Shown piece by piece: positions 1,931-4,400 of a DNA stretch of 38,928 bases. The notes under the pieces were generated by a model. The model ran no database searches and had not been told where the DNA came from. It saw only the letters and a program-made list of their open reading frames with translations. A program made the position numbers and the translations under genes. The stretch's first letter is position 1. Each line of letters begins with the position of its first letter. The stretch is taken from the sequence record SRR2962707_4497. One strand, 5' to 3'.

Positions 1931-2410
1931 ATGAAGATCAAAAGCACTCTTCTCGTCGGCGCATTCGCCATCGCCCTTGCGGGCTGCCAGACCGGCAACC
2001 CTTATGGCTACAGCGGCGGCCCGAAGCAGGGCATCGGCACATTGGCCGGCGCCGTTGCGGGCGGGCTTGCCGGTTCGCAGATCGGCGGCGGCTCGGGCCG
2101 TCTCTGGGCGACGGGTGCGGGTGTGCTCGTCGGCGCACTGGTCGGCAACAATATCGGCCGCAGCCTCGACCGTGCCGATCAGAACTATCTGCAGAACGCT
2201 TCTTACGGCGCCTTCCAGTCCGGCCAGGCGACACAGTGGCGGAACCCGCAGAGCGGCAACTACGGCTATGTGGAGCCGGGCCGGTCCTACCAGACCGGCG
2301 GCTCCTACTGCCGGGAATACAGCCAGACCGTCTATATCGGCGGCCGCCCGGAAAGCGCTTACGGCACCGCCTGCCGCCAGCCGGATGGAAGCTGGCAGAT
2401 CGTGGGCTGA
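1931..2410 (+). CDS. Glycine-zipper outer-membrane lipoprotein (17-kDa surface antigen / RT0821-Lpp0805 family)
   Basis: MKIK signal with lipobox LAGC. Gly zipper GTLAGAVAGGLAGSQIGGG..GALVGNNIGRSLD. C-terminal WRNP..CREY..GTACRQPDGSW. Confidence 0.9.
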   Translation: MKIKSTLLVGAFAIALAGCQTGNPYGYSGGPKQGIGTLAGAVAGGLAGSQIGGGSGRLWATGAGVLVGALVGNNIGRSLDRADQNYLQNASYGAFQSGQATQWRNPQSGNYGYVEPGRSYQTGGSYCREYSQTVYIGGRPESAYGTACRQPDGSWQIVG

Positions 2411-2429
2411 TTGCCCGCGACACATGAAT

Positions 2430-2508
2430 GAACGGCCGAGAGGCCGTTCGGCCTCACCCTTGGTGAACTCCGTCCCCCGACCAGCGCCTGGGTGAGGCCA
2501 CCTTTTTC
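2430..2508 (+). terminator. Tandem hairpins plus U-tract 3' of the lipoprotein gene (terminator, possibly a 3'-UTR RNA)
   Basis: GAACGGCC-gaga-GGCCGTTC (2430-2449), then GGCCTCACCC (2450-2459) pairing with GGGTGAGGCC (2490-2499), followed by accTTTTTc. Confidence 0.5.
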
Positions 2509-2529
2509 AGAGAGACCGTTCGAAGACGT

Positions 2530-2566
2530 GAAAAGGCCGCCGCTTTCCTTTTGGAAGGCGGCGGCC
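2530..2566 (-). terminator. Intrinsic terminator of the minus-strand sORF transcript
   Basis: Minus strand reads GGCCGCCGCCTTCC-aaaa-GGAAAGCGGCGGCC-TTTTC, a long GC stem followed by a U-run. Confidence 0.7.
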
Positions 2567-2689
2567 AGTTCGGAACGGCAGTGACGCGGTCGCCTTTGTT
2601 TTATCTGCGGGACCGCCCCGTTTGCACCAATCTACTTCGCTCGAAGAGTCGCCGCGCCGTCAGCCGGTGCGACGATAAAGGATAAAGGC

Positions 2690-2797
2690 TCAGGCAGAAG
2701 TGCCTCCGGAAGTATCCGGCTTCTGCCTCGCCACACGACCCTCTATCGAGATCGAAACTTTGGCGATGGCAAACGGCGTCAGCAAACCGTTAGACAT
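2690..2797 (-). CDS. Unannotated 35-aa small ORF (MSNGLLTPFAIAKVSISIEGRVARQKPDTSGGTSA) within a probable structured small transcript
   Basis: Hand-translated, ATG at 2797 to TGA at 2690. Preceded by GAAAGGAGGTGATCCG, with a putative promoter upstream and a terminator downstream. Below the ORF-track size cutoff. Confidence 0.55.
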   Translation of the reverse strand: MSNGLLTPFAIAKVSISIEGRVARQKPDTSGGTSA

Positions 2798-2835
2798 CGG
2801 ATCACCTCCTTTCAATTGTTGAACCTAGGATCTCA

Positions 2836-2864
2836 AGCGTGAATCCGCGGCGCGCTCACGTCAA
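2836..2864 (-). promoter_or_regulatory. Putative sigma70 promoter for the sORF/sRNA unit
   Basis: Minus strand TTGACG (2864-2859), 17-bp spacer, CACGCT (2841-2836). Implied TSS near 2829-2830. Confidence 0.5.
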
Positions 2865-3023
2865 GGAAATGTATGTGAAGGATCGATGCATACCGCATGC
2901 TGTGCACCGTTTCCTTTGAATTGCGCCCTTTTCGAATTCGAGGGAACCCGGATCGCGAGCGACGGAAGGCATGGCGAGAGCGCGAAACGCTCCGCTTCTG
3001 CGCGTCGGGCACGAATCAAACCG

Positions 3024-4400
3024 TTAATTTGCGGCCGTCGCGGGCAGGCTCGCTTCGGGTTCCGCCTCGCTGGCCGCCATCAGCGACGCGATGGTGACCG
3101 GCCCGGCGAGGCCGGCCTCTTGTTCGTCCAGCTTCTCGAAGAAGGCTTCGACGCGCGGCTCGTGCGCGAGCGTGCTGTCGGACACGCTGCGGTTGTAGCG
3201 CCGGGCGCGGACCGCAGCGAAGATGTCCTTCAGGGCCGTCTTGTCGGCGGGACGGCCGGGCACGAAGCGGCTCGGCGTGCCGGTCGCGAAGGTGAGAAGC
3301 CCCGCCTCGCAGAGCGATACGGATATCTCCCCCATGGCTTCCATCGGTACATGAAGCCGCTTGGCGAGTGCTTCCTCGGTCCACGGCGTCTGCCCGCGCT
3401 CGAACGCTTCATGGACGAGGAGCAGCGCTTGCACCGACATCCGGTCTAGCTGACGCAGTGTCAGCAGGCTCACGCCCGCATGCGGCGAGAGATAGGCCCG
3501 GTTCTGATAGTAGAAGGCAATGGTGCAGCCGCCGAGCAGGATGAGCCACGCGGCATAGAGCCAGATCATGAAAAAGACGAGGCTCGCAAAGGCGGAATAG
3601 ATCGCGACATATTGCGCGGATTTCACGACGAAGGTCGCGAAGGTCCAGCCTGCCGCGCCCCAGGCGATGCCTGCAACCGTCGCGCCCACAGCCGCGGCTG
3701 CGAACGTCACGCGGGTATTCGGGATCATTCGGTAAATGAAACCGAAAGCGGCAATGAGGACGAGGTAGGGCAAAGCCCGGCTCGACTGATCGATGAGGTA
3801 GCGGACGGCTTCGTATTCGGCGAGCGAGCCGACGAAGGAGTTTGATACCGCGCCCGCCATGACGCCGAACACCGCCAGCACCACGACCACGCCGAGCGCG
3901 CCCATGCTGACGATCTCGGTGAACTGGCGCGCCAGCGAGCGGCTGGATTCCACGCGCCAGATCGCGTTGAAGGAGGCTTCGATCTTGTTGATCAGCGAGA
4001 CGACCGTGTAGATCAGGAAAAAGAAGCCGACCGTGCCGAGCACGTTCACGTTCACCCGGTTTACAAACTCCATCATCTGTTCGGTGATGTCGGCGCCCTG
4101 ATTGCCGAGCGGCGCGAGGAAATCGCGCAGCATGGTCTGCAGATAGCTGTCGAAACCGAAGAGGCGGAAGATCGCAAAGGAAATGGCGAGCGCGGGCACC
4201 ATCGACAGGAGCGTCGTGTAGACGAGGCTCATGGCGCGCAAGCTGAGCGCGCCGCCCAGCAGGTCGCGGATGACGGACCAGCCGATGCGGGCGGCGAGAA
4301 GCAGCGAACGCTGCCAGAAAGGCAGCTCCGCGAGCGGCGGCTCCCAGACAAAGGCGTGGGCGCGATCGAGTAACGTGGCGGAACCAAACATGGCCGTCAT
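3024..4400 (-). CDS. YihY/BrkB-family inner-membrane protein with C-terminal winged-helix-like extension
   Basis: RAMSLVYTTLLSMVP, IEASFNAIWRV, IYRMIPNTRV and YSAFASLVFFMIWLYAAWLILLGG motifs. Multiple TM helices. Alternative ATG at 4391. Confidence 0.85.
   Translation of the reverse strand: MTAMFGSATLLDRAHAFVWEPPLAELPFWQRSLLLAARIGWSVIRDLLGGALSLRAMSLVYTTLLSMVPALAISFAIFRLFGFDSYLQTMLRDFLAPLGNQGADITEQMMEFVNRVNVNVLGTVGFFFLIYTVVSLINKIEASFNAIWRVESSRSLARQFTEIVSMGALGVVVVLAVFGVMAGAVSNSFVGSLAEYEAVRYLIDQSSRALPYLVLIAAFGFIYRMIPNTRVTFAAAAVGATVAGIAWGAAGWTFATFVVKSAQYVAIYSAFASLVFFMIWLYAAWLILLGGCTIAFYYQNRAYLSPHAGVSLLTLRQLDRMSVQALLLVHEAFERGQTPWTEEALAKRLHVPMEAMGEISVSLCEAGLLTFATGTPSRFVPGRPADKTALKDIFAAVRARRYNRSVSDSTLAHEPRVEAFFEKLDEQEAGLAGPVTIASLMAASEAEPEASLPATAAN

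Follow-up and report, generated by a model that had tools for sequence, protein, structure and literature searches.

A probable rre-type small mRNA with a 35-codon frame behind an extended Shine-Dalgarno sequence

What kind of RNA opens with a Shine-Dalgarno (SD) sequence that matches nearly the whole free 3′ tail of 16S rRNA, and then encodes just a few dozen amino acids? The question is raised by the minus strand of a 38,928-nucleotide stretch of DNA from sequence record SRR2962707_4497, referred to here as the window, whose numbering is used throughout. The following features frame the problem:

2868..2878, minus strand: conserved box TCACATACATT, directly upstream of the -35 hexamer (from columns of the alignment A1 described below)
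2860..2865, minus strand: -35 hexamer CTTGAC, identical in all 23 sequences of A1
2836..2841, minus strand: -10 hexamer CACGCT (CA[C/G]GCT in relatives), invariant in A1
2816..2821, minus strand: leader motif CAACAA, common to the wider family
2799..2813, minus strand: extended SD GAAAGGAGGUGAUCC, from the strand read, with 15 Watson-Crick pairs to the 16S 3′ tail
2690..2797, minus strand: small open reading frame (sORF), ATG, 35 codons, TGA, from translation; frame open in 23 of 23 aligned sequences
2531..2566, minus strand: predicted intrinsic terminator GGCCGCCGC...GCGGCGGCC then UUUU, with 7 of 13 pairs changed on both sides

Read directly, the strand gives GAAAGGAGGTGATCC at 2813..2799 (-), then G2798, then an ATG at 2797-2795, exactly as the first-pass annotation of this DNA had claimed. 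Beyond the 15 Watson-Crick pairs, G2798 could contribute an extra G-U pair; pairing was counted against the conserved 16S 3′ end, the host's own 16S 3′ end lying outside the window. Simple arithmetic puts the chance expectation for such an exact 15-mer at about 7e-5 in 2 x 38,928 bases. The 13-mer AAGGAGGTGATCC has a single exact match in the window, its sole other match carrying 2 mismatches, and AGGAGGTGAT at one mismatch or fewer is found 3 times for 1.2 expected, the other two matches being imperfect. Because the remaining matches to both words carry mismatches, the annotation's remark that no other gene in the window has a comparable SD also holds. The observation is real and goes beyond chance. 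A relic of a 16S gene on the plus strand can be ruled out, the match being 15 nt only and free of any SSU rRNA hit. The predicted SD/anti-SD duplex reaches -26.8 kcal/mol, as against -7.0 for GGAGG alone and -4.6 for the weak leader hairpin predicted in the window's RNA.

A conserved unit between promoter and terminator

A metagenome scan with the window's SD and first codons as query yielded 31 loci. The peptide start MSNGL[LMV]TPFA... is carried by 26 of them, and the 25 complete relatives of this kind have 36-37 codons, against 35 in the window; 3 of the 31 loci have the same SD ahead of a longer signal-peptide-like ORF, and the other 2 are AT-rich, with unrelated ORFs of 28-30 aa. The alignment A1 joins the window to 22 of the 26 loci (23 sequences), leaving out L123, L141 and L149, which lie near contig ends, and L148, a duplicate row. 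Throughout A1 the SD and the start codon are invariant (in loci found via an SD query), and the CAACAA leader and the terminator are conserved as well. A sORF of a few dozen codons is thus conserved within the clade, as in the rre mRNAs discussed below.

The promoter proposed by the annotation, TTGACG-17-CACGCT (2864-2836), is real and conserved: CTTGAC and CA[C/G]GCT are invariant in the window and its 22 relatives, and the sequence of the spacer between them (17 nt from TTGACG, 18 from CTTGAC) is variable in A1. A generic sigma-70 scan found no promoter-like site, because the -10 hexamer is far from TATAAT. Judging from the hexamers, transcription would start near 2829. Directly upstream, in the box at 2868..2878, A16, C17 and A18 are invariant and the adjoining columns are at least 70-90% conserved (23 sequences). 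The box may be an UP element or bind a regulator; its clade form on the minus strand is TCACA(C/T)ACATT. At the other end, the terminator placed by the annotation at 2530-2566 is found conserved at 2566-2531, with a stem at 2566-2535 followed by TTTT, a U run conserved in A1, and compensatory changes in 7 of the 13 pairs. The proposed stand-alone unit of about 300 nt stands on this conserved promoter and covarying terminator, and the element appears to be an independent small transcript.

RNA libraries add a hint of transcription. Logan contigs of three of them cover parts of 2553-2899 at 90-99% identity and derive from relatives; one 155-nt contig of library X9 runs over 2665-2816, which comes close to the extent of the Rfam match reported below. 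Such contigs cannot show transcription, ends or strand, and the libraries may contain DNA. The raw-read RNA run X23, from the same species label, placed 0 reads and is no test either way. Among the contigs of library X1, the 3′-UTR part (2553-2633) has a depth of 46 versus 7.5-12 for the ORF part; this could hint at a stable 3′-derived fragment, contig depth being a poor measure.

Could the element simply belong to a neighbouring gene, as a leader or 3′-UTR element of the BrkB/YihY-type gene or of the convergent lipoprotein gene? The gene order is histidine kinase, convergent 17-kDa-antigen lipoprotein gene, element, BrkB/YihY-type gene and cold-shock gene. The latter two lie upstream on the same strand as the element, which comes 160 nt past the stop of yihY, and the gene downstream is convergent in the ORF list. 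This position is kept: of the 31 loci, many of them short, 25 have a YihY-type gene and 19 the lipoprotein gene, and with YihY identities of 39-92% the conserved arrangement spans considerable divergence. Against such a dependence stand the element's own invariant -35 and -10 hexamers and its own terminator. In addition, the element motif GGAGGTGATC is carried by 0 of 6 YihY-type loci fetched from more distant genomes, and the association of YihY with the element is therefore specific to the window's clade. Other rre genes sit in contexts that are unrelated between clades (PMC5711450). The chance that the element is a mere appendage of its neighbours seems to us very slight. Across 401 sampled alphaproteobacterial genomes the best YihY match is 46% identical, so none of them is a close relative.

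Place among the rre mRNAs and the CC2171 RNAs

RNAs of this design have been described before. Under the name of rre, Hahn et al. (RNA Biol 14:1353, PMC5711450; what follows rests on the accessible part of that paper) reported small mRNAs in which 16 nt or more, directly upstream of or overlapping the start codon, complement the 16S 3′ end. Their founding member is rreB of Bradyrhizobium (Bradyrhizobiaceae), a transcript of 165 nt encoding 14 aa that was detected on Northern blots, and whose 17-nt complement of the 16S 3′ end extends into its GTG start codon. rreB is found mainly in the ribosome fraction, where it binds strongly to 30S subunits and co-sediments with them; rreB-EGFP fusions are weakly translated, owing to both the long SD and the GTG; an ATG start raised translation; and the RNA was stabilised once its start codon was swapped for a stop (PMC5711450). 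In Rhodobacterales, rreR is the 18-codon counterpart. The function of these RNAs "remains elusive," and overexpression was without growth effect (PMC5711450). The coding and ribosome-binding role that the annotation had taken to be unexplored was thus published in 2016. The accessible text contains no mention of Rfam, CC2171 or Sphingomonadales, and the window's variant may already be listed in the supplements.

How close is the window to these RNAs? The same 15 contiguous Watson-Crick pairs (2813-2799) are present as in the rreB block, with a G replacing the A of rreB and the A of the ATG mismatched. Like rreB and rreR, the element would be a stand-alone, structured small transcript with an intrinsic terminator, whose leader complements essentially the whole single-stranded 16S 3′ end and is followed at once by a tiny clade-specific sORF, and whose genomic position is kept within its clade but not between clades. 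It differs in length (about 300 nt versus 165 nt for rreB), in codon number (35-37 in the window's clade versus 14 for rreB or 18 for rreR) and in its start, which is an ATG after a G with 15 Watson-Crick pairs plus a G-U, whereas rreB and rreR have GTG and 16-17 contiguous pairs. The peptides have Met-Ser alone in common. The biochemistry was done on rreB.

Rfam gave no match for the whole window at the gathering threshold. In E-value mode, 2821-2649 (-) aligns with RF01867 (CC2171) at 36.2 bits (E 5e-6) for a cut-off of 75, so that the element is a distant relative of CC2171 and not a member. This partly upholds the idea that it belongs to a known alphaproteobacterial sRNA family: the relation to one such family stands, whereas BjrC1505, which had been named as an example, is absent from the 4 Rfam matches at E <=10 in 2400-3050. 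Further matches to MIR4374, Mcr7 and gyrA (E 0.49-10) are sub-threshold and were judged to be chance. The CC2171 consensus opens with cAAcaAucGAAAGGAGGUGAUCCAGUGUCU, which makes the super-SD the most strongly conserved stretch of a curated RNA family. Its first letters, cAAcaAuc, match the CAACAA leader, and its conserved 5′ block cAAcaAucGAAAGGAGGUGAUCC-N-RUG-UCU is present in the window with an alignment posterior probability of "*". The window and CC2171 thus have in common CAACAA-N2-GAAAGGAGGUGAUCC-N-RUG-UCU, and in both the start-proximal codons are predicted to pair with a segment ahead of the 3′ hairpin. CC2171 has been validated by Northern blot in Methylorubrum extorquens (bioRxiv 10.1101/2022.01.24.477521, as far as its accessible part goes). 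In the literature searched, which lacks most subscription journals, the CC2171 and rre papers cite each other nowhere and no functional follow-up of rreB, rreR or CC2171 was found.

A scan for AAAGGAGGTGATCCNRTG in one genome per prokaryotic species returned at least 120 loci; its pattern demanded NRTG, which partly builds in the conservation of the start codon. Among the matches listed, about 100 of 120 loci are labelled Alphaproteobacteria or unclassified Proteobacteria, including Sphingomonadales, Rhodobacterales, many Hyphomicrobiales families, Acetobacteraceae and others, and in 95 of the 120 a complete ORF of at most 60 aa goes with an AAC within 12 nt upstream. In these 95 family-like loci (again among the matches listed), an A-rich/C-rich consensus occupies -9..-4, codon 2 is Ser (TCN) in 89, and the start context is A-GTG in 48, G-ATG in 31 and other in 16, so that the window's GATG form is common to 31 of them. 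Going by the descriptions in the accessible text of PMC5711450, the listed loci match both published types: 14-aa rreB-like ORFs beside tRNA genes at L024, L100 and L118, and 18-aa rreR-like MSRKVLERGVGT... ORFs. The 15 complete rreR-type ORFs among the matches listed each have 18 codons, ending with TAG (8), TAA (4) or TGA (3).

When Rfam was run on 18 rre-type loci, 4 scored above the cut-off for CC2171, each with an MSHC... peptide (L076, 96.8 bits; L058, 88.5; L049, 86.2; L037, 82.9). Below it, among the 18 tested, were the rreB-like, rreR-like, Sphingomonadales, Mesorhizobium, window-clade and Burkholderiales loci. This makes CC2171 look like a sub-family within the rre class; the "sRNA" of Rfam and the "mRNAs" published as rre seem to form a single class. 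By these comparisons the window's element falls within the rre class and outside Rfam CC2171 as curated; it is very probably an rre-type small mRNA. Arguably it is a clade-specific longer form of the published kind, a distinct sub-type and not a new class, and it adds to rre a second architecture, which is longer, with 35-37 codons in about 300 nt.

In the same family-like loci, the early codons are family-wide T- or A-ending in GC-rich genomes: TCT is used in 65 of 95, CAT in 46 versus CAC in 1, and GGT and TGT recur (among the matches listed). This bias fits a nucleotide-level constraint or low structure near the start, rather than codon preference.

Open frame, peptide and RNA fold

Translation bears out the 35-codon ORF at 2797-2690 that the annotation had read: the peptide is MSNGLLTPFAIAKVSISIEGRVARQKPDTSGGTSA (35 aa), with the TGA at 2692-2690. 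In the mechanical ORF list this frame begins further upstream, at a TTG (2690..2815, 41 aa). Is the frame itself under selection? Over the first 105 nt, the 23 sequences have 0 stops in frame 0 versus 56 and 40 in the other frames. In the variable C-terminal part, stops occur in 0 of 19 distinct sequences, compared with 8 and 6 of 19 out of frame, a rough chance of 0.009 if 10 loosely independent groups are assumed. Both indel events within the ORF are of 3 nt, in a transcript whose 3′-UTR indels have many lengths, and TGA, TAA and TAG are exchanged at the same stop site across A1.

The peptide presents a different picture. In-frame pN/pS is 0.79, versus 1.08 and 0.58 out of frame, in sequences that are not independent and in which constraint on the RNA would cut synonymous change and inflate the ratio. 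The three codon positions have 17, 18 and 17 variable columns, that is, no codon periodicity. Within the first 12 codons, 6 sites vary, 4 synonymously and 2 conservatively (L/M/V, I/V), so some constraint at the peptide level is possible. We read this as pointing to selection for the translation of a fixed-length frame, with no visible amino-acid-level signal.

These data bear on two opposite alternatives. The first is that the product is a functional micropeptide of 35 aa, MSNGLLTPFAIA..., whose expression level the super-SD merely sets. Such a reading would account for the conservation of start, stop position and a 35-37-codon open frame in the 25 complete relatives, and for the near invariance of the first 12 residues with their synonymous or conservative changes; Hahn et al. 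also call RreB and RreR conserved small proteins (PMC5711450, accessible part). It is nevertheless unlikely: the in-frame pN/pS is higher than one out-of-frame value and lower than the other, the N-terminal codons that are conserved are those taken up by helices 4 and 5 of the RNA (see below), and peptides of different orders have nothing in common beyond Met-Ser. Synthetic RreB and RreR were unstructured, and their presumed overproduction was without phenotype (PMC5711450, same part). For the 35-aa peptide NCBIfam returned 0 families, and Pfam a chance-level phage tail match alone (E 0.24).

The second alternative, in line with Rfam's classification of CC2171 as "Gene; sRNA," is a purely non-coding base-pairing sRNA in which SD-like leader and ORF are incidental. 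The strong structural covariation in the 3′ half and the lack of an amino-acid-level selection signal would suit it well. We hold it to be improbable all the same, as the exact 15-nt 16S complement stands 1 nt before an ATG or GTG in 95 of 120 loci (among the matches listed, with a pattern that demanded NRTG), codon 2 is almost always Ser in those 95, the frame is kept open with ORF indels in multiples of three, and rreB-EGFP fusions are translated, if weakly (PMC5711450).

The fold was derived with RNAalifold from the transcribed part of A1, on which pairs were then counted. Its main elements are:

2769..2791, minus strand: 5′ strands of predicted helices 4 and 5, codons 3-10, AACGGUUUGCUGAC and CCGUUUGC, 19 pairs
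2618..2625, minus strand: predicted 3′ strand of helix 5, GCAAACGG, from the A1 pair count
2574..2585, minus strand: predicted 3′ strand of helix 4, GUCACUGCCGUU, from the A1 pair count
2692..2728, minus strand: ORF-end hairpin, helices 9-11, with 6 of 14 pairs changed on both sides
2649..2675, minus strand: 3′-UTR hairpin, helix 12, with 8 of 9 pairs changed on both sides
2586..2616, minus strand: 3′-UTR hairpin, helix 13, with 6 of 7 pairs changed on both sides

The consensus comprises 82 pairs in 14 helices. In A1, 93.1% of cells are paired versus 88.6% in shuffles, and 27 pairs are changed on both sides versus 14.3 in shuffles, with 0 of 500 shuffles reaching 27; slid-partner controls give 9-13 such pairs. 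The predicted fold is supported by covariation, which comes from the 3′-UTR hairpins and the terminator, and less so from the ORF-end hairpin, within which the model pairs the U of the stop codon. Helix 12 is aligned by the Rfam match with the terminal hairpin of CC2171.

Helices 4 and 5 would join the early codons to the 3′ UTR over a long range. With 95-100% of their cells paired they are nearly invariant, and they have no covariation support because their sequences never vary; they are plausible but unproven. Structure prediction on the window's RNA gives codons 3-12 a mean unpaired probability of 0.29. Among the matches listed, an exact 6-mer complement from codon 3 is found downstream in 34 of 92 loci, versus 0-14 at other offsets outside the SD block, and the paired words, compared by eye, differ by order (CAUUGUC/GACAAUG in one, CAUGGU/ACCAUG in another). 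This codon-3 peak fits the long-range helix of the Rfam CC2171 model. A crude duplex-energy test of the start-proximal closing helix in 92 loci (among the matches listed) gave a median z of -0.2, with 4 of the 92 below -2, and so brought out no signal.

A proposed mode of action

How could such an RNA work? In the scheme that we somewhat favour, the minus strand from about 2829 to 2531 would be an independent rre-type small mRNA, about 300 nt long, that docks on 30S subunits, is weakly translated and is remodelled by that translation, with fold and frame both under selection. Its mostly single-stranded leader would pair with nearly the whole free 16S tail (15 Watson-Crick pairs and a possible G-U), and docking on the 30S subunit would therefore be far tighter than for an ordinary mRNA, a proposal made by analogy with rreB. 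The spacing between the GGAGG core and the start codon would be normal. Initiation and clearance would be slowed by the over-long duplex and by two long-range helices burying codons 3-12, so that translation would be weak. Going by the sequence, a ribosome reading the 35-codon frame would have to melt these helices, thereby remodelling the RNA and tying its lifetime to translation. Selection would then chiefly keep the fold of the RNA and a fixed length of open frame, which is to say ribosome transit and not peptide sequence. We infer 30S docking, weak translation and start-codon-dependent decay by transfer from rreB, a distant homologue with a 14-codon GTG frame, to a variant of 35 codons started by ATG. 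Candidates for the physiological output are a sensor of free 30S subunits or translation status, a ribosome-associated regulator, or the peptide.

The annotation had wavered between a highly translated micropeptide and an RNA that captures 30S subunits. Capture fits the co-sedimentation of rreB with 30S, whereas the extended SD lowers translation instead of raising it (PMC5711450, accessible part). Could capture itself be the function, the RNA being a sponge that titrates 30S subunits and damps global translation, as the annotation also suggested? The predicted duplex of -26.8 kcal/mol would be strong enough to invite the idea, as would the presence of rreB mainly in the ribosome fraction with the 30S subunits. 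Its authors disfavour it: overexpression left growth unchanged, and ribosomes far outnumber the RNA (PMC5711450, accessible part). A pure sponge, moreover, needs no start codon, open frame or fixed stop, all of which are conserved here. We regard a sponge as most improbable.

The docked and translated mini-mRNA that we prefer has a parallel in ribosome-dependent leader peptides and attenuators such as Sinorhizobium trpL/rnTrpL, where translation of a tiny frame remodels RNA structure. In both, the act of translation can outweigh the peptide. The window's element, in contrast, has no downstream gene to regulate in cis, and its SD is extreme, whereas attenuators use ordinary ones. One may go further and, quite tentatively, imagine the sORF as a track for ribosome transit, indifferent to the peptide, and the RNA as a sensor of translation status that waits on idle 30S subunits, bound to their 16S tail. 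On the rare occasions when a ribosome moves through codons 3-12, it would flip the long-range helices and switch the conserved 3′ half between a stable, possibly trans-acting state and a degradable one. If true, the whole rre/CC2171 class, 14- and 18-codon forms included, would be a widespread riboregulator reading ribosome availability via the anti-SD.

To our knowledge, few natural transcripts pair with the whole of the anti-SD tail as the rre RNAs do. Apart from its longer architecture, the window adds a covariation-backed fold, and evidence suggesting that what is conserved is the RNA with its open frame and not the peptide. These points narrow the experiments needed and by themselves reveal no new mechanism.

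Related blocks occur at other loci. Many rreR-type loci (e.g. L002, L010, L016, L036) have a CACCUCC(U) word about 100 nt downstream that mimics the 16S tail; pairing with their own SD could amount to self-sequestration. The word is absent from the window's RNA. A complement at offset -16, in the SD region, is present in 20 of 92 loci (among the matches listed). L026 is labelled Cytophagales, yet carries a Sulfitobacter-like rreR at its contig end.

Outside Alphaproteobacteria, the block precedes a tiny ORF in a series of MAGs (L056, L079, L119; L034, L092, L054, L057, L070; L089; L019, L106). In Burkholderiales these are MRD... ORFs of 24-27 aa with a shared CAACCACG leader, and in Planctomycetota ORFs of 9-16 aa; Krumholzibacteriia and Gammaproteobacteria MAGs also have the block with a tiny ORF. 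Some of these loci may be mis-binned contigs.

At L052, L086, L125, L127 and L131, one of them labelled Azospirillum, the extended SD stands ahead of ORFs of 48-68 aa with a signal-peptide-like hydrophobic N-terminus, a motif that contains Cys, and a tail rich in Ser, Thr, Ala and Pro with GG at its end. A second kind of gene seems to use the extended ribosome-binding site here. Finally, three Flavobacteriia genomes (L023:~2986, L033:~463, L077:2201) have the same 14-nt block and a GTG ahead of a frame of 82-83 aa, MPLR.SEVNRMLGKVDEL...VKVIDGPFNGF.GT..., which may correspond to the C-terminal KOW part of NusG and would then place a super-SD inside a gene.
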